The position numbers and the translations under genes were made by a program. The notes beneath the pieces are model-generated. The model saw only the letters and a program-made list of their open reading frames with translations. It was not told the DNA's origin and ran no database searches. Positions 1-18,857 of a stretch of 64,000 bases of DNA are shown one piece after another. Every line of letters starts with the position of its first letter. Positions within the stretch are counted from its first letter, which is position 1. The DNA comes from a bacterium (lineage in GTDB: Bacteria; UBA8248), in the NCBI GenBank assembly GCA_965219955.1, contig OZ244799.1, forward strand, positions 2,048,001-2,112,000, in the 5' to 3' direction.

Positions 1-414
1 ACAACCCACACAAACGCATACATGACTCGTTCCGTGCAACTCCACGATCTTGTCCGGGTCATGGCCCGCTTTCTGGTGAAGTCCATCCGTATTTTGCGTC
101 ACCAGCAATTTCAGGTGACCGTGAAGGGACAACTGCGCCAAAGCGAAATGTCCTTTTGAAGGAGTGGCGTTTCGCACCAGATCGTACCCGTCTTGAGCCA
201 CTTCCCAGTAACGCCTTCGTATGTCCTCCGAAGCGAGCCACCGACGAATTTCAAAATCCTTCGGGTCGAACCGATCCCAGATTCCGCCTTTGGACCTGAA
301 ATCGGGAATACCGCTCTCGGTACTTATGCCGGCTCCGGTAAGGCATACGGTAGAGCGAGATTCCAAAACCCATGCCGCCGCTTGCTCGATGAGTTTTCGC
401 TGGGAATCACTCAA
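1..414 (-). CDS. cobB: Sir2-family NAD-dependent deacylase (runs off left edge)
   Basis: Manual translation from TTG at 414: MSDSQRKLIEQAAAWV...TGAGISTESGIPDFRSKGGIW...VTQNTDGLHQKAG...VELHGT; sirtuin motifs GAGIS, PDFR, TQN.DGLH, HG. Not in the ORF track. Confidence 0.92.
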   Translation of the reverse strand, partial: MSDSQRKLIEQAAAWVLESRSTVCLTGAGISTESGIPDFRSKGGIWDRFDPKDFEIRRWLASEDIRRRYWEVAQDGYDLVRNATPSKGHFALAQLSLHGHLKLLVTQNTDGLHQKAGHDPDKIVELHGTSHVCVCVGC

Positions 415-547
415 TCTTCATCCCCGGGTTAAAATATATAATGGCAATAACAACAATGAGATGTGAAAATCAGTCGTCAGTTGATGTATGGTACGTAAGA
501 ATGGAGCGCGTGCAAACAATAAGTGATGACTCGTGAGGGTATGACAA

Positions 548-1816
548 TTGTCTGACACGAAAACGCACTTGTTCAAATTCATATCGCTCTCCATCCTGTT
601 CGCCTTCGGGATAAGCCTTTCCGGCTGCGCTGATTCCCTGCTCCCGAAGGTGAAAGAAAGCTCCGTCAAAATCCTGAAAAACGCCATTGAAGTGGAATTC
701 ACCCAACTGACCCGTGGATTCGACCAACTCGACCAAACAGGCGACCTGGGACTTTGCGCTCCTGTGCTCTTCGGGGTGGCGCGTTATGCCGTTTATCAGG
801 CGGTGGAGGAGAAAAGATCCGCCACCATGGCGCAACTGACCCGGTTCATCATGAGGGCGCGGGCGGCCATCAAGCGCGCGGAAGAGAAGATGCAACAAAA
901 AAAATGTGTCGATACGGATGGCGATGGTCTCACAGACATAGCGGAATTCCGCAAGTACAAAACAAAACCAGACAATCCTGATACAGATGGGGATAAAGTA
1001 TCCGACTCTTTGGAAATCCGCCGGTACCGGACCAATCCGCTCAAAGCGGATACGGACGGCGACCTGCTCGACGATGGGGATGAAATATCACGCGGCCTGA
1101 ATCCCCTCCTCGCCGACAGCGATGGAGACGGATTCATCGACGGCATAGAAATCGCCCACCGCTCGAACGCGCGCGATCCGTGTTCTCAGCCCCTGGATGC
1201 GCAAAATCTCGACCGTATGCGCGAATGCGGGCCGAACCAGATTCACGCCAAACCGGTTCAAGTTCAATCACCGCAACAACGAACTCCGGCGCCCGAGCCA
1301 AAAATAAAACGATTCGCGAGGGAAAAAAGAAGACCCAAGGCCGTAAAGCCAAAAACGAGGCCTTCTCCCAAACCGCCGGCCGCAAGAATCCGAAACATAG
1401 AAAAAGCCAATTTCGAAAAGAAAAAACCGAAATCGGCACTTGACCGCAACGGCTCGCATCCTGCCAAAAAAAACCAGGCGATTCGAACGCGCCAGGCAAA
1501 TGCGGCTATTCCTGCAGCAAAAGAACCTCTAAAAGAAATCACCCATACGAAAAGAAATCATCTCCCCGCGAAGCCGCAGGATACGAATCAACACATCGCG
1601 AAGAAAATGAATACCGAGGGAGTAAAAATAAAATCGAACCCCGGAGAATCACCGAGCCGCGCATCTGTTACGGCTTCTCTCGTGGATAATTCTGAAAAAA
1701 CGGAAAACCCCACTACAGTTCCTTCGAAACCCGTATCTCCAAAGCCAGCGAAGAAAAAAGTGTTTCCTTCTAGACCTGAGAACTTCCCTTCCGCGATTTT
1801 CATGAGGTTGTGGTAG
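548..1816 (+). CDS. Putative lipoprotein with Ca-binding DxDGDG (bacterial TSP3-like) repeats and a basic Pro/Lys-rich tail
   Basis: Lipobox LSGC; four DTDGDG/DSDGDG repeats; low-complexity K/P-rich C-terminus. Confidence 0.7.
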   Translation: MSDTKTHLFKFISLSILFAFGISLSGCADSLLPKVKESSVKILKNAIEVEFTQLTRGFDQLDQTGDLGLCAPVLFGVARYAVYQAVEEKRSATMAQLTRFIMRARAAIKRAEEKMQQKKCVDTDGDGLTDIAEFRKYKTKPDNPDTDGDKVSDSLEIRRYRTNPLKADTDGDLLDDGDEISRGLNPLLADSDGDGFIDGIEIAHRSNARDPCSQPLDAQNLDRMRECGPNQIHAKPVQVQSPQQRTPAPEPKIKRFAREKRRPKAVKPKTRPSPKPPAARIRNIEKANFEKKKPKSALDRNGSHPAKKNQAIRTRQANAAIPAAKEPLKEITHTKRNHLPAKPQDTNQHIAKKMNTEGVKIKSNPGESPSRASVTASLVDNSEKTENPTTVPSKPVSPKPAKKKVFPSRPENFPSAIFMRLW

Positions 1817-1961
1817 AGTCGCTCATGATGCCCTTGGTATACAGATATGCCAGAAACTGTGCGACTATCTGGTAAGGGTGCTTCCGCCTCAAACGCAAAA
1901 TCATCGCGACGCGATTTGAATCGTTTTTCACAGCAGGAAAAGAAGAGAACAGGAGAAAATA

Positions 1962-3653
1962 ATGATAGAGCAGAAAACAGCCCTGAACCGATTTAGCCGG
2001 CGCATCACCCAACCGCCCTCACAGGCCGCCTCACAGGCCATGCTCTACGGCGCGGGGCTGGATGAAATCGACATGAAAAACCCCCAGGTCGGCATCGCCA
2101 GCATGTGGTGGGAGGGAAATTCCTGCAATTTTCACCTCAACCGGCTGGCCGAATACATCAAACAAAGCGTGAACGCCGAAAAGAAAATGGTCGGCCTCAT
2201 TTTCAACACCATCGGCGTGAGCGACGGCATCTCCATGGGAACGGAGGGCATGAAATACTCCTTACAATCCCGGGACCTCATCGCCGATTCGATCGAGACC
2301 GTCGTCGGCGCGCAATGGTATGACGCCCTGGTCACGCTCCCCGGATGCGACAAGAACATGCCCGGCTCCATCATGGCTATGGCACGGCTCAACCGGCCCA
2401 GCCTGATGGTTTACGGCGGCACCATAAGCCCGGGATTCCTCAATGGAGACAAGCTGGACGTGGTTTCCGCCTTCCAGGCCTACGGCGAATATTTCTCGGA
2501 TAAAATTGACGAAGAGCGCTTTCAGTCGGTCATCCGGCATGCCTGCCCGAGCGGCGGCGCCTGCGGGGGGATGTATACGGCGAACACGATGTCCTCATCC
2601 ATCGAAACGCTGGGCATGAGCCTGCCTTACAGTTCATCGAATCCCGCCATGAGCGAGGATAAGAAAAACGAGTGTCTCGATGTGGGAAAAGCCATTTATC
2701 ATCTTCTCGAAAACGACATCAAACCCAGCGACATCATGACGAGAGAAGCATTCGAGAACGCGATCACCATCATCATGGCACTCGGCGGCTCGACAAACGC
2801 CGTCCTCCACTACATCGCCATCGCCAAGGCTGTCGGGATTGAATTCACAATCGACGATTTTCAGGAAATCAGCGACAATACGCCTTACATCGCGGATCTG
2901 AAGCCCAGCGGCAAATTCGTCATGGAAGACCTCCACGACGTGGGCGGCGTGCCAGCCGTTCAAAAACTTCTCTTGAAAGAAGGTCTGCTCCATGGCGATT
3001 GCCTCACCGTCACGGGCAAGACGCTCGGAGAGAACATCGAGGCCTTGCCTGACCTCCATGCCAGCCAGAAAGTTATCGTACCGCTCTCGTCTCCCATCAA
3101 GAAAACGGGACACCTCCAGATCCTCTACGGAAACCTCGCGAGCGAGGGTGCCGTCGCCAAGATCACGGGAAAAGAAGGAGAACGTTTCGAAGGCCCTGCG
3201 CGATGCTTCGATTCCGAGGAAGACGCCCTAAAAGGACTGGAAGAAAACAGGGTTCAAAAGGGAGACGTCGTCATCATCCGCTATGAAGGCCCCAAAGGAG
3301 GCCCCGGGATGCGGGAGATGCTGACGGTTACTTCCGCAATCATGGGGGCCGGCCTCGGGAATGACCTGGCCCTCATCACGGACGGCAGATTCTCGGGTGG
3401 CACGCATGGGTTCGTCGTCGGACACGTTACGCCTGAAGCCCAAAGCGGCGGCCTCCTCGCGCTCATCGAAGACGATGACACCGTTTTGATCGATGCCCAA
3501 AAACGCGTCATGGAACTCAAAGTACCCGAGGAAGAGATAGAGCGGCGGCGGCAAAACTGGAGCGCACCACCGCTTAAGTTCACCAAGGGCACGCTCTACA
3601 AGTACGCCAAGTGCGTATCTTCGGCATCGGAGGGCTGCGTGACGGACGAATAG
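1962..3653 (+). CDS. ilvD: Dihydroxy-acid dehydratase
   Basis: [48 protein letters not shown] motifs. Confidence 0.95.
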
Positions 3654-3665
3654 AGGTTGACCACG

Positions 3666-3702
3666 AAAAAAAGAGGGGAGTCGTTTGCTCCCCTCTTTTT
3701 TG
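3666..3702. terminator. Bidirectional intrinsic terminator between convergent ilvD and the DUF442-like gene
   Basis: AAAAAAAGAGGGGAG-TCGTTTG-CTCCCCTCTTTTTT hairpin with T-runs on both strands. It lies just past the read-through stop at 3719, not near the UGA at 3896. Confidence 0.85.
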
Positions 3703-3718
3703 TGGCTGCGGCGCCAGT

Positions 3719-4183
3719 CTACGATGCGCCGGTTTTCTTTTTACGGTCGGTGTATTCCTTGAAATATCCCGCGATAGAGGAAGCCTCCCAGTCAAAATCA
3801 ATGTCGCGCGCTTTTTGAAGCACTTCGTCTCCGCTCAGGCCTTCTTCTTCGGCCAGATGAACAAGCGAGCAAATCCCGGCTCGCCTCACGCCTTTTCAGT
3901 GAACGTAAACCAGTCCGTCTTTCCTGGCTTCACTGAGTTTTTGGTGGATTTCCGCCGATAACTCATCGCTTATGTTGTCGGCAGTCGCAGGTACATGCAA
4001 GAAGTTCATACCCAGTTCATGCGCCGCCTCTCTCTCCGCATCGGGCGGAAGTTCCGGTTCTTCCTCATCTGCGGAACGAACATTCACCAGGGTTTTTATC
4101 CCTTTATTCGCCAGACTCTCCATATCCTTCCGCCCCGGCTGGCTACCGAACACGAGATTATCCGCCAATTCGATGTAGTCCAT
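3719..4183 (-). CDS. DUF442/PTP-fold (sulfurtransferase/phosphatase-like) protein, probable selenoprotein (UGA 3896-3898 = U96), 154 aa
   Basis: N-terminus GSQP...GIKTLVNVR...E...GMNFLHVP is typical of DUF442. The track ORF stops at VYVH; the frame continues U-KGVRRAGICSLVHLAEEEGLSGDEVLQKARDIDFDW... to TAG at 3719-3721, giving H-U-x4-R in place of H-C-x4-R. Confidence 0.8.
3863..3886 (-). promoter_or_regulatory. Candidate SECIS hairpin
   Basis: UGA+9 nt then AGGCGAGC-CGGGATTT-GCTCGCTT; loop G about 19 nt after UGA. Confidence 0.6.
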
Positions 4184-4206
4184 ACCCTTTTTCCTCGACG
4201 ATAGTT

Positions 4207-5049
4207 TCAGACTCGTTGCACCAGCTCCCGACAGCGAAGCAGGCAGGTTACTTTTTCATCTTCTCCATCACGCTTATAAATTCCAAGCAAATTGTTGAGC
4301 ATTCTCTCCAAGATACGGCGAGGAGGGGTTTCCTGTAAGAACCGCATATCGAAATGATACCCGAGTCCACGCAGAATCGCCGCGCAATCCCCCACGCTCA
4401 GGCGTTTCCCCCTATCGAAGGGGTCCAGAAAAATGGGCTCCTCATCACCTTGGTACTTCACGATAAAATGTCCCGGCATTCCGACTCCGTGAAACGGAAG
4501 TCCCAACCGTGCGCCAAGAATCAAATACAAAGCGGAAAGTGATATTGGAATGCCCCGTCTGCGCTCCAGCACACGATCCATAAAGCTGTTCTGCGCATCA
4601 TAGTAATTGTCCCGTTCGCCATCGAAGCGAAGCTCCCCGTGTAGATATTCGACGACTTCGGTGACAATGGCGTCGGCTTTATTTATACCCACCAAACGTC
4701 CACGCAAATGATTCTCCATCTTCAGCAAATCGTCTTTTTTCGTCTCCATGTTTTCGAGAGGATGGCCGAAAGACGCCAGCAAGAAGCAAGCATCCTCCAG
4801 ATCCACATCTTCAACCGAGGAAAGAGACCAGTCCGAAAAAGCGATTTCGATCTGTCTGTAATGGAACTCCATAAGCGATGACGGCAGCATGACATCGCTT
4901 ACCTCACGATTTTTCAGCATGTGCAGGAGTCTTTTCTGCTCTTTGGTCGAGAATTCCGAAACCTGTCGGTCCAAGGCCGACACCACCCGCGGTGAACCAT
5001 CATCCAACAAGCGGCAAACGGCCTCTAATTGCGAGTCACTCAACGACAA
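4207..5049 (-). CDS. SirB1/transglutaminase-like family protein
   Basis: YYDAQNSFMDRVLERRRGIPISLS..Y, GVGMPGHF, DPF motifs. Confidence 0.85.
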   Translation of the reverse strand: MSLSDSQLEAVCRLLDDGSPRVVSALDRQVSEFSTKEQKRLLHMLKNREVSDVMLPSSLMEFHYRQIEIAFSDWSLSSVEDVDLEDACFLLASFGHPLENMETKKDDLLKMENHLRGRLVGINKADAIVTEVVEYLHGELRFDGERDNYYDAQNSFMDRVLERRRGIPISLSALYLILGARLGLPFHGVGMPGHFIVKYQGDEEPIFLDPFDRGKRLSVGDCAAILRGLGYHFDMRFLQETPPRRILERMLNNLLGIYKRDGEDEKVTCLLRCRELVQRV

Positions 5050-5153
5050 AATGCCACTCCCCGGTTAGTGAGCGTCTTCCCCTATCTCAGCCATTGAAAT
5101 ATGGTATTATCATTCGAACTAATCCACAATCCGCGCTCGCCAGGAGGAATTGC

Positions 5154-6779
5154 ATGTCTACGTATGCCGACGTTGTGGCGGAAGTCCTTCAAGACGCGGG
5201 CATCGAACTCATTTTCGGGGTTCCTGGAAGTTTAAGTTCCGTCGAACTCATCGAAGCAGCGAGAAAGCGCGGCATTCGCTACATCCTCTGCAGCAACGAG
5301 AGCAGCGCGGCCGTGAAGGCGGGAACGTATGGCATCATGACGGGACGACCGGGGGTCGTGAGTACGGGCGTCGGTCCGGGGGCGGCTGCCGTTCTCCATG
5401 GCGTAGCGAACAATTTTCTCGAGCGAGCGCCGTGCCTCATTTTGACCGATCGCTTCTCCGACGAGCAGTTTCGCCGTCAAGGACGGCAAAAACTCGATCA
5501 GGATCGTTTATTTCTTCCAATCACGAAAGGTACGATCAAGCTCGCGAAAGACAACGCTTCGGTAGCCATCAGGCGGGCACTGGCTCTGGCCGTAGAAGGG
5601 AGGCCGGGCCCCGTGCATGTAGACCTCCCCTACGACGTCATGCTGGCAAACGCCGAAGAAAGCGATTTTCCACCCAAGTCAAACCCCAAAAAGTATGTTG
5701 GCCGCACCGGTTCCGCCCACCCGGGCATTACGGCAACTCTCAACGCAGTCTCGGAGTCGAAAAACCCGATAGTCATAGCGGGACTCCAGGTAAACCGCTC
5801 AGGGCGAGAGGCGGAAAAGGAGTTCGTATCTTTCGCCGAGAAACTCGGAGCGCCTGTTCTCGCCGCACCATCAGCGAAGGGCGTCTTGCCGGAACAGCAT
5901 CCCCTCGCCATGGGAACCTTCAGAGGCGCGCCTTCCGAGCGGGAATTGATAGACAAGTCGGACTTATTTCTTTTGGTAGGCTTCGATACGGTGGAAGTAT
6001 TCGCTCCCGGATTTTGGGACTACCCCCAAAAGGTGATCAATCTGGATGAAGTGCCGCATCTCGATGATTTGATTCGGCCGGAAATTGAAGTCGTCGGCCA
6101 CCTTGCCGACATCCTCAGAGAGTTGAGCGCCTCCGTCTCTTCCAGCCATGCCTGGAACACCGAGGAGATGGATTCTTACAAAAAAATGAGGCAATCCGCG
6201 TTGTTCCCTACCGGGGAAGGCTTGATGCCCGGCGCCGTTATCCGAATCGCACGGGAATACCTCCCCGATAACGGCATCATGACCGCGGATGCAGGAAGCC
6301 ACAAAGTCCTGGCCAACGACATCTGGGAGACGCGACGCCCTCTGGGTTACCTGACCTCCAGCGGACTGGGTTCGATGGCCGTTGCCACGCCGGCCGCCAT
6401 GGCCGCCAAATTAACTGAACCAGACACTCCTGTCGTTTGCCTCACCGGGGACGGGGGGTTTCTCATGCGGATTGGCGATATGGAAGTCGCCGTTCGCGAA
6501 AACATCCCCTTCGTCACCGTCGTATTCAACGACCGCTACCTGAACCTGATCAAAATCAAACAGGACAACCGCTCTTTCCCGCGTCTTGGCACCGAGTTCT
6601 GTGATTCCGACTATGCATCCGTGGCGAAAGGACTGGGTTGTGAGGGCGAGAGAGTTTCTACAGAAGAGGAATTGAAAGACGTACTCAAGCGCGCATTCTT
6701 GTCTGCAAAACCCTGGGTCATCGACGCCGTCATCAATCCCGATGGCTATGTAGGCTCAAAAGATGTTCGTGCGGAATAA
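5154..6779 (+). CDS. Thiamine pyrophosphate-binding enzyme (acetolactate synthase-like)
   Basis: IFGVPG, GRPGPVHVDLP, GDGG...FND TPP motif; AGGAGG RBS before ATG 5154. Confidence 0.88.
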   Translation: MSTYADVVAEVLQDAGIELIFGVPGSLSSVELIEAARKRGIRYILCSNESSAAVKAGTYGIMTGRPGVVSTGVGPGAAAVLHGVANNFLERAPCLILTDRFSDEQFRRQGRQKLDQDRLFLPITKGTIKLAKDNASVAIRRALALAVEGRPGPVHVDLPYDVMLANAEESDFPPKSNPKKYVGRTGSAHPGITATLNAVSESKNPIVIAGLQVNRSGREAEKEFVSFAEKLGAPVLAAPSAKGVLPEQHPLAMGTFRGAPSERELIDKSDLFLLVGFDTVEVFAPGFWDYPQKVINLDEVPHLDDLIRPEIEVVGHLADILRELSASVSSSHAWNTEEMDSYKKMRQSALFPTGEGLMPGAVIRIAREYLPDNGIMTADAGSHKVLANDIWETRRPLGYLTSSGLGSMAVATPAAMAAKLTEPDTPVVCLTGDGGFLMRIGDMEVAVRENIPFVTVVFNDRYLNLIKIKQDNRSFPRLGTEFCDSDYASVAKGLGCEGERVSTEEELKDVLKRAFLSAKPWVIDAVINPDGYVGSKDVRAE

Positions 6780-6944
6780 TGAAAATTTTTTGCTTGACAC
6801 AAACCTCTCAACAACGCATGTTATACTCTATCTCGTTCGTATAGCTTAGGGGGATTGTTCATTTCCCTGTGAATCAGAGCCCAGGCAGGGGCTGGGCATG
6901 ATATCCTCGACCTCATGAGGGGTCTCCGCGCGGGAGGATTGTAG

Positions 6945-7151
6945 GTGCCAGAGGGAACAGTCAAGTGGTTTAGCGACAAAAAGGGGTATGGCTTCATTTC
7001 TCGGGAAGATGGTGACGACATCTTCGTTCACTTCTCAGCCATCGTTGCGGATGGATTCAAATCACTGAAAGAAGGTGAAAAGGTCACATTCGAGATCACC
7101 CAAGGTCCCAAAGGGCTTCAGGCGGCGAATGTAACCAAACTGGAAGAATAA
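6945..7151 (+). CDS. Cold-shock protein (CspA family)
   Basis: [32 protein letters not shown]; GGAGG RBS before GTG. Confidence 0.95.
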
Positions 7152-7189
7152 CGTTCCTCTCTATCATCGTACCTCTCGACTGGGAAAAG

Positions 7190-8545
7190 CTACGCGCTTT
7201 CTCGAACATACTCTAAAACCGTCTCTGCGGCTTTATCCCCGCTTCGCACCGCTCCTTCTACGGTGGCCGGCAAACCTGTGCGAGTCCAATCTCCAGCAAG
7301 AAAAAAACCCTCAATCGGTGTTCTGGTATCTAACCGGTAATTTTGCTCCGCCACCCCGTTCGCCCAGGTAGCGGCGCGCTCCCGCACCACCAAAATATCT
7401 CGAATACGGTTACGGGGAATCATGCGATTCAAGCAATCCCTCGCAGACGACTCGATGATCGACCGCTTCTCAGATGCGATGGAATCCTCCGCCCCGGCCA
7501 ATAGACATACCAGGTTTTCCGCACATTTCCCGCCAGTTTCAAGTCGAAACAACCAGTCCCACTCCTCACCCACTATTGCCTCAAAAGGAGGCCCCTCATC
7601 CGGTTCTTCAAGCCAGAAATATGCGCTGGCGATAGGCCCGGGGCGTAGTTTTCCCAGATTCGAAAAAAGTGATTGCTGACCGAGTTCGCTGCCTAGCAAT
7701 CTGCCCAAAACGTCGGGTGGCACGGCGGAAATGACTGCGGCTGCGGGTAAAGTCTCTCGCTCCCTTACCATCACACCGTTCATTTTTGAATCATTGACCT
7801 CAAAACCGACTGCGGGTTGCTGAAGCCTCACCTCTCCACCAAGGTGCCGGATGCGTTGGGCCGCTCTGTTCGCCCACAGCGTACCCAATGCCTTCATCGG
7901 CACCCCCAAGGCGGCTCCCTTCGGCCCATCGGCAAAGGCTTCCCGAATCACCGCCTTGAACAATTCCGCACTCCCCAGTTCCAAAGGCAAGTTCAACACC
8001 GCGCGTGCAAACGGCTCCCAAAACCAGCGCACCGCCTCATTCTTCTGGCCAAGGTCCTCCAGCATGTCACTCATGGATTCATCCGGGTTCTCATCGCCCG
8101 ATTTGGAAACAATCTTCGAAAGACCTCTCAAAAGATTTATTTTTTCCAAAAAGCGGGGTCCACGCCATTTGAGCAAGCCTTGAAGTTGCGCAAAAACCCC
8201 TCCTCCCTCTGGAAATGACAACTGCGTCCGTCGGGTCGACCCCGCTTTCCGAATACGGTAGCCCACTTCCAGGGAAGGGGAGAAAAAAATATCATCGGCG
8301 GCGCCCACTCTTTCCAACAATGAGCGCAATGCCGGATTGGCCGCCATGAACAAATGCGGGCCCCAGTCCAACTCCATGTCCGTGGATGAATGCTTGAAAC
8401 TGCGCGCCCGGCCACCGAGAAACTTCCCGGCCTCGAGCACCACAACCTTGACGCCAGATTCGGCGAGGCGCAAAGCGGCGGACAGGCCCGCTGCGCCGGC
8501 TCCGATAATGATGACCGGCCTCTCGGATCCGCCCAGCTCAGACAT
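7190..8545 (-). CDS. hpnE: Hydroxysqualene dehydroxylase HpnE
   Basis: GAGAAGL FAD motif, GGRARSF, LAGDWT.TGLPATVEGAVRSG; directly follows the hpnC/hpnD fusion. Confidence 0.85.
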   Translation of the reverse strand: MSELGGSERPVIIIGAGAAGLSAALRLAESGVKVVVLEAGKFLGGRARSFKHSSTDMELDWGPHLFMAANPALRSLLERVGAADDIFFSPSLEVGYRIRKAGSTRRTQLSFPEGGGVFAQLQGLLKWRGPRFLEKINLLRGLSKIVSKSGDENPDESMSDMLEDLGQKNEAVRWFWEPFARAVLNLPLELGSAELFKAVIREAFADGPKGAALGVPMKALGTLWANRAAQRIRHLGGEVRLQQPAVGFEVNDSKMNGVMVRERETLPAAAVISAVPPDVLGRLLGSELGQQSLFSNLGKLRPGPIASAYFWLEEPDEGPPFEAIVGEEWDWLFRLETGGKCAENLVCLLAGAEDSIASEKRSIIESSARDCLNRMIPRNRIRDILVVRERAATWANGVAEQNYRLDTRTPIEGFFLAGDWTRTGLPATVEGAVRSGDKAAETVLEYVRESA

Positions 8546-10705
8546 CTACGCTTCCAGAAAACAGCGAAGCGCTTCTAGTAGTTTTTCCCTGGACTTCAAA
8601 GAGGGGCGATAATCCATGTGCCGAAAATCATTCTTCTCCATCTCACTCAGAAGTCTCCGATAAATTCGGCCCATGATTCTCGCGGGAAGAAGGTTCCCTG
8701 TCTTCTCGTGACTCAAGGCTTCGTTCGCTCCCTCGTAGTATTCACGCGCTCGATGCGCCAAGGACCGAAGAAGGCTTAAAACCTCGGAAGTATCGTTTTT
8801 ATATCTCAAATCGGAGACCGTTACGCCATATTTCTCCATTTCGCTTCCGGGAATATAAATGCGCCCTTCCTCGGCATCTTCCCAAACGTCTCTCAAAATG
8901 TTCGTCATCTGCAGCGCCCTGCCCAAACAAACGGCGTAGTCGTTGGCGAATTCCGATTTCGCCTCGAAGATGCCCAGGCACGCCAGCCCTACTGCGGAAG
9001 CCACCTTGTCACAATAATTTTCAAGGTCTGACAAATTTTCAAATCGACTATCCTCCAGATCCATCGCCACCCCGTCACAAATCGCCCGGAAATGTTCCGG
9101 CGGCAAGTCGTATTTTCTCGACGCCCATGCGAGTTCCCCGATTATCGGGTGGGATGGACTCTCCTCGCCCAACTGATCCAGCGCCTCTTTCCATTCGCGC
9201 AACGTGGTTTTCTTGCCGGATATCTCACCCGGCTCATCGGCGATGTCGTCGGCCATGCGGCAATACGCGTAAACCGCCGTGATGGCGCGCCTTTTCTCCG
9301 CCGGCAGGCTGAAAAAAGACAGATAAAAATTCGACCGGCTCGCGCGAATGAACCAGCGGCAGTATGCGCGGTTCAACCCTTCTTCGGCATGCCGATCCAC
9401 ATTGGATTCGAGTCGATAGACCGGGCGAAACACCGCGAGCAACGATTTGGCCTTATCCCGGCCATTCAAAAGCGGAGATCCCGCGCAGACGTTCCATTCC
9501 GCACGGGAAATGGCGTCAAGCGCCGCAATGCCGCCGCGCCAAATCGCGCGAAGCTCACGGCCCAATGCGCCGCGGGTGCGGTACAAAAGAGGCAGGCCCT
9601 GCCTGAAGAGGCGCTTCGTCCTTTTTATCTGAAAAACCAGGAACGCTCGAAGCTGAGGCGTCGCCGCGTCGGCAAGCAAATCATCCTCGGAGACGGAGAA
9701 TCTTTTCATCTCATCCTGAGGCATATAGATAATGCCTCGCTCGGCGTCTTCTTTCACATCTTGCAAGTGATTCGCAATCTGCAAGGCCGTGCAGATGGCA
9801 TCTGACGCGCGAAGGGCCTCTTCATCACGTATCCCGTGCAGCATGAGAACGATTCGCCCGACGGGATCCGCCGATCGGCGACAATAATCGAGCAAGGCTT
9901 CATAGTTCGGATACCGGAGGACTGTGACGTCCTGTTTGAATGCCGACAGCAAATCCCGAAAAGGCTGCAAGGGCAAATCGAATTGCTGAATCGTGTCGGA
10001 GAGCGCAATGAAAACGGCTGTTTCCGCAACTCCTTGCTGGGCCAATACGAGTTTTTCTTCCCACTCATCAAGGCGCGCAAGTCGCTCCCGGGCGGGCTCT
10101 GTCGAATCCGCGATATCATCCGCACCCCTGGCGAACGCATATACCGCGGCAACGTGCGGTCTTATCTTCGCCGGAAGCAACTTCGAGGCGACGGGAAAAT
10201 TCTCGTAGTGGCCGACTACGATTTTCATGCACTCATCATAAGCGGCGCTTAAATCAGCCTCTGAAACATTTTTTGCCTCTTTGTCTGAATCCCGTGTCTC
10301 CTCGCCATTCATGAGAGATTCTATCAACTGCGCATCCGCGGGCAGGAAATCAAACTCCCCCAATGAGGCAGGATGCACCCACTCGTGTTCCGCTACCCCC
10401 AAATTCTCCGCCACTCCGCTTTCCCACTCACAATCATAAAAGCGAAGGTGGACGTCCCTGTCTGGATAACGGTGTCGTGTCTCCCAATGAAGACGGCCAA
10501 CGCGCACATCGATCCCTAATTCTTCGCAAATTTCCCTTTGCAATGCTTCCCGGGGATTCTCGCCGTACTCAATTTTGCCGCCGGGAAACTCCCAGAAGCC
10601 CGGCATATGTCCGCCCTCCGGGCGCTGGCAGATGAGAATGCGTCCCTCGCTCCGGACAATCCCGGCAACGACGCTTAGCTCTAAAACGGCAACTTCGTCC
10701 TTCAT
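8546..10705 (-). CDS. Triple fusion: MutT-like Nudix + HpnC + HpnD (squalene synthesis)
   Basis: Nudix box GGKIEYGENPREALQREICEELG; HpnC-type HYENFPVAS/DDIAD/LQIANHLQD; HpnD-type SNFYLSF/AYCRMADDIAD/LQMTNILRD; one 719-aa ORF. Confidence 0.85.
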   Translation of the reverse strand: MKDEVAVLELSVVAGIVRSEGRILICQRPEGGHMPGFWEFPGGKIEYGENPREALQREICEELGIDVRVGRLHWETRHRYPDRDVHLRFYDCEWESGVAENLGVAEHEWVHPASLGEFDFLPADAQLIESLMNGEETRDSDKEAKNVSEADLSAAYDECMKIVVGHYENFPVASKLLPAKIRPHVAAVYAFARGADDIADSTEPARERLARLDEWEEKLVLAQQGVAETAVFIALSDTIQQFDLPLQPFRDLLSAFKQDVTVLRYPNYEALLDYCRRSADPVGRIVLMLHGIRDEEALRASDAICTALQIANHLQDVKEDAERGIIYMPQDEMKRFSVSEDDLLADAATPQLRAFLVFQIKRTKRLFRQGLPLLYRTRGALGRELRAIWRGGIAALDAISRAEWNVCAGSPLLNGRDKAKSLLAVFRPVYRLESNVDRHAEEGLNRAYCRWFIRASRSNFYLSFFSLPAEKRRAITAVYAYCRMADDIADEPGEISGKKTTLREWKEALDQLGEESPSHPIIGELAWASRKYDLPPEHFRAICDGVAMDLEDSRFENLSDLENYCDKVASAVGLACLGIFEAKSEFANDYAVCLGRALQMTNILRDVWEDAEEGRIYIPGSEMEKYGVTVSDLRYKNDTSEVLSLLRSLAHRAREYYEGANEALSHEKTGNLLPARIMGRIYRRLLSEMEKNDFRHMDYRPSLKSREKLLEALRCFLEA

Positions 10706-10720
10706 CCCATCTCCATGAGC

Positions 10721-11554
10721 TTAACCCTGCGCAGCCTCAGGCTCCATATCATCCGGCAACCGTCTCAAGACACTGGAAAACACGATGGGTTCCGCCATGG
10801 GTACCGCCTTGGACAGTTCTTTTTCATCTGCAAAATACTCGCCCGGCAGGACCAATCCCGGCATCCGCAACTCGACCGAATCCTTTGAGAACGGCCATGG
10901 GGATATTTCCAGATCATCGGTGTTTGCGGTTTTCACTTTCAACCCACCCTGAATCAAGGGGTGGACTGCGGCATCGGGCGGGGTAATTTCCGGCGCCCGG
11001 CACGCCAACAGGGATAATGTATCGCAAACCCCGAGCAAAGACACGGAATTTTCGATCGCATCTACGTGCTTCGGCTCAATCAGGGCGTCCAACTCTTTCT
11101 GCCGTTTCGATTCAGCGTGAATGAACCCGTTCAGCACCTTGGAAACTTCCAGCGGGGCGCCTCTTCTCCCACCTGCTGCGAGCGAAGAGAAGTGGAGGCT
11201 GACCAAATATCCGGAAAACGGATGGAAGGAAGCGCAAGAATCGATACCCTTCGACCATATTTCCACCGCTTTGTCCGCCGTGATGCCGAAAAAACTGTAA
11301 GGCAGTTTCGTCAGCGCATCCCACCTCGGGGTGGCGTCCGAGCGGCACCACCCGACGTCATGATTGTCGATGGCGAACAAGACTTTCTCTGTGAGTTCAT
11401 CCGGCGGTGAGGGTAGCGATTCAATGCCTATCCAATTTCGCGCAATCGTACCCGCGGCCCGGGCGTGGTCATGTTGAGAGATGAGACGAACATGGTTATC
11501 TCGCGGACAAACAATCATTTGAAACACCAAAAAACGGCGGAGAATACTTTCCAA
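10721..11554 (-). CDS. DUF3891 family protein
   Basis: ISQHDHA, HDVGW, SLHF, PWPF motifs; true start may be the ATG of MIVCPR. Confidence 0.7.
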   Translation of the reverse strand: MESILRRFLVFQMIVCPRDNHVRLISQHDHARAAGTIARNWIGIESLPSPPDELTEKVLFAIDNHDVGWCRSDATPRWDALTKLPYSFFGITADKAVEIWSKGIDSCASFHPFSGYLVSLHFSSLAAGGRRGAPLEVSKVLNGFIHAESKRQKELDALIEPKHVDAIENSVSLLGVCDTLSLLACRAPEITPPDAAVHPLIQGGLKVKTANTDDLEISPWPFSKDSVELRMPGLVLPGEYFADEKELSKAVPMAEPIVFSSVLRRLPDDMEPEAAQG

Positions 11555-18212: not shown

Positions 18213-18857
18213 CTACTCAGGGTGAGGGGTATCGGGCGGCGCGGCGGTGCGGCGGATGAGTTCCTTGAGCGCCTCCATGTTCTCGCGGTGCTGATCTTTG
18301 TGCTCCTCGCGCTGGGTGGCGAGCGCGTTCATGGTCGCGACGTGCTGAGCTTTTTGATCCTCGCGTTGCGCGGCGAGCGCGTTCATGGTCGCGATGTGCT
18401 GATCTTTTTGGTCCTCGCGCTGGGCGGCGAGCGAACTCATAGTGGCGCGGTGTTGATCTTTGTGCTCCTCGCGCTGTGTGGCGAGCGCGTTCATGTTCTC
18501 GCGGTGCGCGCGTTCCATCGCTTCCATGGTTGCGCGGTGCTGGTCTTTTTGCGCCTCGCGCTCGGCGGCGAGTGCCTCCATGTTCTCACGGTGCGTGCGC
18601 TCCATCGCCTCCATGGTTTCGCGGTGGCGGCTGTCGAGCGCCTTCATGGTTTCGCGGTGCTGGGCGTCGCGGTGGCGCGCGGCCTGGCGCATGAAGTAGA
18701 GGCCGTAGGCGATCAGGGAGCACTGCGCGGCCCCCACGAGCGCGGCGACCCACACCGAGGCCTGCTGCGCTACGAGGGAGGCTTTCTGGATGGCCAGGGA
18801 TGATTCCTGGATGGCGAGACTTGCGGCTTCGTATTCCGTCATTTGGTTTTCCCCCAC
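18213..18857 (-). CDS. Membrane-anchored coiled-coil protein with tandem HRENMEALAxQREEHKDQ repeats
   Basis: One hydrophobic segment, then ~18-aa (54-nt) and 11-aa repeat units; likely start MTEYE at 18843. Confidence 0.7.
   Translation of the reverse strand: MGENQMTEYEAASLAIQESSLAIQKASLVAQQASVWVAALVGAAQCSLIAYGLYFMRQAARHRDAQHRETMKALDSRHRETMEAMERTHRENMEALAAEREAQKDQHRATMEAMERAHRENMNALATQREEHKDQHRATMSSLAAQREDQKDQHIATMNALAAQREDQKAQHVATMNALATQREEHKDQHRENMEALKELIRRTAAPPDTPHPE

Follow-up and report, generated by a model that had tools for sequence, protein, structure and literature searches.

Does the in-frame UGA that closes a short open reading frame (ORF) exactly at an expected catalytic cysteine act as a stop, or does it encode selenocysteine (Sec), and what would the resulting protein do? 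The question is raised by a gene in a 64,000-nucleotide stretch of contig OZ244799.1 (assembly GCA_965219955.1, positions 2,048,001 to 2,112,000 of the forward strand) from a bacterium of GTDB lineage UBA8248, hereafter called the window. An earlier reading made from the DNA alone (the sequence-only reading) had proposed Sec in the active-site loop of a DUF442 domain with a protein tyrosine phosphatase (PTP)-type fold, without giving a strand; the candidate gene is carried on the minus strand. Translation with table 11 yields a 95-aa ORF whose C-terminal end is VYVH, with TGA directly after it, so that the frame does stop right before the nucleophile as had been noticed. Reading through the TGA gives a 154-aa product in which H-U-K-G-V-R-R forms residues 95 to 101 and 58 aa follow U96. 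The gene probably encodes a 154-residue stand-alone protein of the DUF442 branch of the PTP fold, in which the catalytic Cys of an H-C-X4-R motif is encoded by UGA and inserted as Sec. That it is a selenoprotein of some kind is highly likely from sequence comparison, and sulfur transfer is favored as its activity, with less assurance, by analogy with other DUF442 domains. The parts of the gene that bear on these points are as follows.

3719 to 4183, minus strand: whole coding sequence of the DUF442-type selenoprotein candidate, 154 aa, from an ATG start at 4183 to 4181 to a TAG stop (included) at 3721 to 3719; matches Pfam PF04273, with the same frame in 17 of 17 related loci.
3896 to 3898, minus strand: in-frame UGA (read as 3898 to 3896), codon 96, the proposed Sec codon at the nucleophile position; TGA in 18 of 18 sequences, on the Cys column of relatives.
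3881 to 3898, minus strand: active-site loop U-K-G-V-R-R, codons 96 to 101, of the C-X4-R type; aligns with CRTGTR of 2f46.
3863 to 3886, minus strand: hairpin resembling a selenocysteine insertion sequence (SECIS), with an 8-bp stem (7 bp conserved) and the 8-nt loop CGGGAUUU, 9 to 10 nt after the UGA; supported by its conservation and low synonymous diversity.
3869 to 3871, minus strand: codon for Cys105 (U-X8-C), a residue shared by the whole Sec clade and the relative P0026; other relatives have a hydrophobic residue there.
4192 to 4196, minus strand: GAGGA, a putative Shine-Dalgarno-like motif read from the sequence, 8 nt 5' of the ATG.

Conservation of the UGA, and of the frame behind it, could be assessed in 18 sequences, comprising the window and 17 loci from metagenome-assembled genomes (MAGs), of which five are titled Nitrospinota or Nitrospinaceae and the others just "bacterium." Codon 96 was TGA in 18 of 18 sequences, which answers the sequence-only reading's call for homologs with TGA at this column. 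Behind it the frame was open for 55 or 58 codons in all 17 loci, ending in TAG in 13 and in TAA in 4. A TGA and an open frame shared by 17 of 17 related loci are more than would be expected by chance. The pairwise ratio of nonsynonymous to synonymous divergence (dN/dS) was 0.11 for codons 1 to 95 versus 0.17 for codons 109 to 150, downstream of the hairpin, indicating that selection on the protein acts on the tail in the same way as on the head; the downstream segment, whose conservation the sequence-only reading had wished to see tested, is thus conserved. This conservation spans a synonymous divergence of about 1 per site. In one locus, L011, codon 132 is also an in-frame TGA (L011:6394-6396), at a column that is otherwise an invariant Trp, encoded by TGG in the remaining 17 sequences. 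The extra TGA may reflect an error in sequencing, may genuinely remove the last 22 residues, or may be read through as well.

Public protein databases hold this gene only in shortened form. When the 95-residue piece was searched against 5.8 billion proteins, 25 matches were obtained from 25 candidates, with 58 to 98% identity and lengths of 84 to 95 residues; 23 of the 25 end at V-[YF]-V-H, one ends earlier, and one (P0025) is an in-frame deletion. The full 154-residue query had no full-length copy among proteins of 84 to 270 aa. Every public copy found was an annotated fragment stopping at residue 95, with the catalytic residue missing, which leaves these bacteria with incomplete genome annotation and selenoproteome counts. 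In another relative, the tail downstream of the UGA has been called as a separate small ORF (P0054, 53 aa), showing that split annotations of the DUF442 gene exist in public data. P0025 (94 aa, on a 229-kb contig) joins approximately residue 56 to approximately residue 115, with the active-site region gone and the tail in frame, and is either a decayed copy or an assembly artifact.

A search of the 154-aa product against family models, one of the checks suggested by the sequence-only reading, placed the protein in DUF442 as that reading had done. Pfam PF04273 (BLH_phosphatase, formerly DUF442) matched residues 6 to 101 with 32.5 bits versus a cut-off of 26.1, and other phosphatase-fold Pfam models scored lower and below their cut-offs, including weak matches to DSPc, PTP-NADK, and PTP-SAK. 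The best NCBIfam rows were the Blh sulfur transferase/dioxygenase (NF040641) and the TIGR01244 sulfur transferase, both aligned across the UGA over residues 5 to 136. Alignment past the UGA was also found with 2f46 (residues 4 to 127) and, without gaps, with P0026 (residues 1 to 152). An exhaustive profile search of 1.84 billion representatives returned 1,873 relatives at E values up to 1e-3, most of them about 150 residues long and aligned end to end.

Column counts were made on 150 listed of these 1,873 relatives (154 domain rows, with P0001 to P0025 left out). Among the relatives listed, the column occupied by the UGA held Cys in 135 of 150 rows, Ser in 8, Asp in 4, and Gly, Pro, or Leu in 1 each, while the flanking positions were nearly fixed (His95 in 149 of 152 rows, Arg101 in 144 of 150). 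The loop was of the C-X4-R type in 129 rows and C-X5-R in 1, in agreement with the loop type proposed by the sequence-only reading. Within the Sec clade the loop reads U-K-G-[VL]-[GR]-R. The closest full-length relative, P0026, has Cys at the UGA column and is 44% identical over 152 residues. Cys forms such as this were found only by the exhaustive profile search; a word-based protein search with the full-length query retrieved none. As an atlas query, P0026 returned only the expected DUF442/TIGR01244 clusters, and relatives P0026 to P0045, which have Cys, fall below the TIGR01244 and Blh cut-offs as the candidate does.

A second cysteine sets the Sec clade apart from most of the family. Cys105, nine residues past U96, is invariant in the clade and is shared by P0026 and the tail fragment P0054, while about 145 other relatives have a hydrophobic residue (F, L, M, or V) at position 105. 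Some of the relatives are fused to other domains: P0030 carries two rhodanese domains, P0036 a metallo-beta-lactamase and a rhodanese domain, and P0123 a metallo-beta-lactamase domain (persulfide dioxygenase-like). The candidate itself had no match to rhodanese PF00581 at E values up to 1.

Structural comparisons led to the same family. In a PDB profile search, DUF442 structures came first (2f46, E 2e-20; 3gxg, E 2e-15), with true phosphatases far behind. An AlphaFold2 model built from an alignment of 76 rows, of which 69 were relatives from the profile search and 7 were drawn from the 18 clade sequences, reached a mean predicted local distance difference test (pLDDT) score of 94.1 and placed U96 at the end of strand 91 to 95, ahead of helix 100 to 114. 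The top Foldseek matches to this model were 3gxh (E 3.5e-8, template modeling [TM] score 0.75) and 2f46 (E about 4e-8, TM 0.74/0.80), followed after the DUF442 structures by Tk-PTP, TpbA, and other phosphatases. The protein would accordingly have a PTP-type fold outside the thioredoxin fold, as the sequence-only reading had it. A first model, from a 17-row alignment of the clade, was weak (pLDDT 70, Foldseek E about 2e-3) and was replaced by the 76-row model. In the HMMER alignment a gap opens against TpbA, the candidate's loop being one residue shorter than C-X5-R.

Bacterial SECIS elements obey rules on spacing and on a G-containing loop, and both the position and the G-rich loop of the hairpin downstream of the UGA would fit them. 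The 8-bp stem described by the sequence-only reading is present in the window (3886 to 3863), where one of the eight pairs is G.U, but only seven pairs hold in every relative: seven were formed in 14 of 14 distinct rows, representing the 18 sequences, and the eighth in 6 of 14. Two one-sided changes (A to G and C to U) still pair as G.U. The synonymous divergence (dS) was 0.185 over codons 97 to 108 versus 0.99 upstream and 0.80 further downstream, and of all 9-codon segments of the gene, codons 100 to 108 vary least at synonymous sites (0.114 versus a median of 0.335). A single codon was used across all 18 sequences for 5 of 7 invariant residues in the hairpin versus 6 of 49 elsewhere (one-sided Fisher P = 0.002, with columns and sequences not fully independent). 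This lost synonymous change is how an RNA element overlapping a coding sequence would be expected to look, as for bacterial SECIS. In Escherichia coli fdhF, too, an in-frame UGA is followed some 10 nt later by a hairpin that lies within the coding sequence and has a G in its apical loop. The candidate's arrangement resembles this one and differs from it in the 8-nt loop CGGGAUUU and in a stem sequence peculiar to the candidate's clade.

The likely activity of the protein can be approached through DUF442 domains that have been measured. According to the available portions of two reports, these are sulfur transferases only, namely, the Blh domain and the domain fused to the sulfide:quinone oxidoreductase (SQR) of Cupriavidus pinatubonensis, CpSQR (PMC5823870 and PMC8533005). 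With thiosulfate as donor and cyanide or glutathione (GSH) as acceptor, the Blh domain transfers sulfane sulfur, and it is coupled to a dioxygenase domain, as described in the part of the Blh report at hand (PMC5823870). The CpSQR domain has the loop CRTGTR; in the accessible text, about 95% of activity was lost when Arg99, at the end of the loop, was changed, and the Cys mutant suffered the same loss, given by the authors as data not shown (PMC8533005). A stand-alone seleno-sulfurtransferase is the most likely identity of the candidate, its function being deduced from homology only. Sulfur transfer is favored because the measured DUF442 activities are all of this kind, because relatives are fused to rhodanese and metallo-beta-lactamase domains, and because a conserved general-acid Asp appears to be lacking.

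A working scheme can be drawn from these comparisons. The mRNA would probably be shared with the upstream transglutaminase-like gene and would end at a bidirectional terminator. At UGA-96, by analogy with fdhF, the hairpin 9 to 10 nt downstream would recruit SelB and Sec-tRNA(Sec), so that Sec is inserted and termination avoided. The U96 selenolate, held in a positive pocket made by the loop amides and Arg101, would then take a sulfane sulfur from thiosulfate, glutathione persulfide, or polysulfide; an enzyme Se-S adduct would form and the sulfur would be passed to a thiol or a similar acceptor. This transfer step would mirror that of the measured Cys forms of DUF442 in Blh and in the C. pinatubonensis SQR. 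More speculatively, the clade-specific Cys105 might resolve or protect U96, possibly as its partner in a selenenylsulfide.

A genuine selenoprotein of this fold might instead act on oxyanion esters, as a phosphatase or as an arsenate- or selenate-type reductase with Sec as the nucleophile and Cys105 as the resolving residue. True phosphatases match the fold nearly as well as DUF442 structures do (Tk-PTP has a TM score of 0.82, and TpbA, PTPMT1, and KAP are also high), the weak Pfam matches to DSPc, PTP-NADK, and PTP-SAK point toward the same enzymes, and the second Cys at +9, peculiar to this clade, would be in keeping with a redox cascade. However, the loop is C-X4-R and not the C-X5-R of phosphatases, the longer form appearing in a single row versus 129 among the relatives listed, and the DSPc score of 24.2 is short of its cut-off of 33.5. 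Nor does there seem to be a well-conserved Asp in the loop after the "IPV" strand: among the relatives listed, the Asp count for any single position between 66 and 75 does not exceed 35 of about 152 rows, D73 being invariant within the Sec clade only. With sulfur transfer as the only measured activity of DUF442 domains, we judge an oxyanion-directed enzyme unlikely.

Two further explanations dispense with Sec. If the UGA were a true stop, the cell would make a fragment of only 95 residues that lacks the nucleophile, and the frame behind the UGA would be a decaying remnant or a separate small gene. All public annotations do end at residue 95, one gene caller gave the tail as the separate 53-aa ORF P0054, and the P0025 copy has lost the active-site region by an in-frame deletion. 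Yet all 18 sequences keep the downstream frame open, at a dN/dS of 0.17 and without a frameshift, the sole extra stop being the TGA in L011, and the fragment would end one residue before the catalytic residue and lose three helices of the fold. Codon 96 is moreover always TGA and never TAA or TAG, whereas the final stop varies (TAG in 13 loci versus TAA in 4); a true stop is very improbable. Slightly less credible still is decoding of the UGA as one of the standard amino acids (Trp, Gly, or Cys) through a changed code or general suppression, which would account for a frame open across the TGA in a window lacking Sec machinery. TGA is an ordinary stop here, terminating 17 of the 36 ORFs of at least 300 aa in the window, and the neighboring genes (ilvD, a thiamine pyrophosphate [TPP] enzyme gene, and the transglutaminase-like gene) have full-length Pfam matches under table 11. 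Read-through at other TGAs likewise gave nothing, in that 40 tested of 170 candidates had no Pfam domain spanning the TGA. A TGA on a Cys column followed by a conserved hairpin is, by contrast, the signature of Sec.

Several results nevertheless weigh against a seleno-sulfurtransferase or against parts of that reading. All 18 sequences come from a single clade in which gene order is identical, and they are not independent witnesses. For the hairpin, none of the 8 pairs changes on both sides and shuffle controls were not exceeded, so covariation offers no proof, there being too little variation among the sequences; the 67-nt stretch alone folds no better than shuffles (z -0.34), and support for the hairpin comes from conservation and not from folding energy. 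Rfam gave chance-level matches only for 181 nt around the UGA at E values up to 10 and, over the whole window at gathering scores, two tRNAs only. None of selA, selB, selD, or tRNA-Sec lies within the 64-kb window, and with no spanning domain among the 40 read-through candidates tested, the window gives no second sign of Sec use. The only support on the point of Sec machinery is that MAGs labeled Nitrospinota or Nitrospinaceae are credited with 48 to 54 selenoprotein genes in the available part of PMC13326102. On the side of function, the NCBIfam scores are below cut-off (49.1 versus 85.85 for TIGR01244 and 62.9 versus 625 for Blh NF040641), which makes the candidate a sister group of the characterized sulfur transferases and not one of them. 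Its loop composition, K-G-[VL]-[GR], departs from the family's usual x-x-G-x, and the neighboring ilvD, TPP enzyme, and transglutaminase-like genes are silent on sulfur metabolism.

Most known selenoproteins have a thioredoxin-like fold, and a Sec form of the PTP fold would stand apart from them. Published catalogs were compared on this point. In the accessible part of the 2022 list of 87 prokaryotic selenoprotein families, there was no DUF442, PF04273, COG3453, phosphatase, or PTP entry (PMC9312934). A newer list, dated May 2026, covers 119 prokaryotic families or subfamilies, those of Haft 2023, Haft 2025, and deep-Sep among them; its Table 1 had no DUF442 or phosphatase-fold entry, its nearest entries being five rhodanese-like (PF00581) forms (PMC13188914). 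As far as the available text of the two lists goes, neither includes a natural Sec form of the PTP/dual-specificity phosphatase (DSP) fold (PMC9312934 and PMC13188914). The family was likewise not among the nine new deep-Sep families in the portion of that report at hand (PMC12013277), DUF442-type terms were not found in the accessible part of the 2022 preprint of Haft and Gwadz 2023, a full-text literature search retrieved no paper pairing selenoprotein with DUF442, PF04273, TIGR01244, or BLH_phosphatase, and no model in NCBIfam release 20 claims the protein. The sequence-only reading had suspected an undescribed family and had named three points on which it could fail; all were followed up, and the relatives do align past the UGA, other genomes do carry TGA there, and the family is absent from these lists. 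As far as these lists, reports, searches, and models go, the candidate represents an uncatalogued selenoprotein family, one more Cys-to-Sec family among about 120 and not a new mechanism.

Compared with known systems, the candidate is nearest to the DUF442/PF04273 proteins themselves (the N-terminal domain of Blh from Xylella and Agrobacterium, CpSQR, TIGR01244, 2f46, and 3gxh), with which it shares the Pfam family, the fold, a six-residue loop from nucleophile to Arg, and relatives fused to rhodanese and persulfide dioxygenase-like domains. It differs from them in having UGA/Sec in place of Cys, in standing alone, in scoring below the TIGR01244 and Blh cut-offs, and in its K-G-[VL]-[GR] loop with the added invariant Cys105; its activity is predicted, whereas those of Blh and CpSQR were measured. 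The nearest catalogued functional analogs are the rhodanese-like selenoproteins (PF00581, forms 1 to 5), which are also predicted sulfurtransferases with Sec for a catalytic-loop Cys, but belong to another fold and family and have the motifs UxxS, UxxG, and CxU in contrast to H-U-K-G-x-x-R (PMC13188914). Cys-based PTP/DSP phosphatases such as Tk-PTP, TpbA, VHR, and PTPMT1 share the overall fold and the position of the nucleophile at a strand end before a helix; their C-X5-R loop is one residue longer, and their general-acid Asp is not seen in the candidate. If the selenoprotein assignment is true, this would be the first phosphatase-fold selenoprotein in the catalog, and its natural Sec/Cys pair in a C-X4-R loop would allow a ready comparison of selenolate and thiolate chemistry in a well-studied architecture. 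It would also provide a second fold, unrelated to rhodanese, in which sulfur-transfer enzymes adopted selenium.

The Sec form may extend beyond the window clade. Two more database groups are cut at the same histidine, one consisting of seven 95-residue clusters around P0062, of which one bears a Nitrospinae MAG name, and the other of P0115 (94 residues). A tree was built from the N-terminal 95 columns of 57 rows, comprising 8 from the window clade, 7 from the P0062 group, P0115, 38 from P0026 to P0075 (under 200 aa), and 3 distant sequences; it has few columns and many unresolved forks. The tree unites the window clade, the P0062 group, P0115, and P0026 in a single clade (support 93/82) and places P0026 next to the window clade (99/89). 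The P0062 group and P0115 may thus be further Sec clades, and here too there is a point to set against the selenoprotein reading, in that their TGA is deduced only from proteins cut at the same histidine. A more ambitious interpretation, which we hold to be doubtful, would make this the first natural selenoenzyme on the PTP fold and a lineage-specific subfamily made up of the window clade, a second clade with one named member (the Nitrospinae MAG), a third lineage, and one Cys form. Such a subfamily might use a U-X8-C selenenylsulfide switch in selenium and sulfane-sulfur trafficking for large selenoproteomes; its task could be, for example, to deliver Se(0) or S(0) to SelD or to enzymes that handle persulfides, as opposed to generic rhodanese chemistry.

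Two features flank the gene.

4207 to 5049, minus strand: upstream gene, 280 aa, transglutaminase-like core 2 (Pfam PF13369, 146 bits); at the same place in 17 of 17 loci.
3661 to 3705, no strand assigned: bidirectional intrinsic-terminator hairpin, common to the convergent ilvD gene; folding energy -28.5 kcal/mol (z -4.5), bordered by an A-run on one side and a U-run on the other.

Between the end of the transglutaminase-like gene and the start codon of the DUF442 gene, there are 23 nt on the same strand, and the two genes are probably co-transcribed. At the other end, the terminator hairpin lies 16 bases beyond the TAG, and 0 of 200 shuffles fold as well. The 58 aa added by read-through do, as the sequence-only reading had remarked, end beside a bidirectional terminator. 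A simple pattern scan for terminators and promoters missed the terminator at 3661 to 3705, probably because its T-run is absorbed into the stem, and found no promoter.

Gene order was the same in all 17 loci, because the loci are close kin: a NUDIX/synthase fusion, an amine-oxidase-type enzyme, the TPP enzyme, the transglutaminase-like protein, DUF442, convergent ilvD, and a TSP3-repeat protein. Neighboring genes were 62 to 99% identical between the window (1 to 10183) and loci L001 to L017. The neighborhood was considered as a clue to function and rejected, the order being the same in all loci and the neighbors being unrelated housekeeping genes.

Farther upstream, a same-strand run at 7190 to 11554 (minus strand) encodes a DUF3891 protein, a 719-aa fusion of NUDIX and squalene/phytoene synthase (two matched stretches), and a flavin amine-oxidase-type enzyme. 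This run resembles an isoprenoid, carotenoid, or squalene cluster, and its NUDIX/synthase fusion and amine-oxidase-type gene were matched in 16 of 17 loci. Elsewhere in the window, a 214-aa ORF at 18213 to 18857 (minus strand), with no Pfam match, is rich in nearly identical repeats, each about 20 residues long, of the pattern ...HRENMEALA.QRE.QKDQH....

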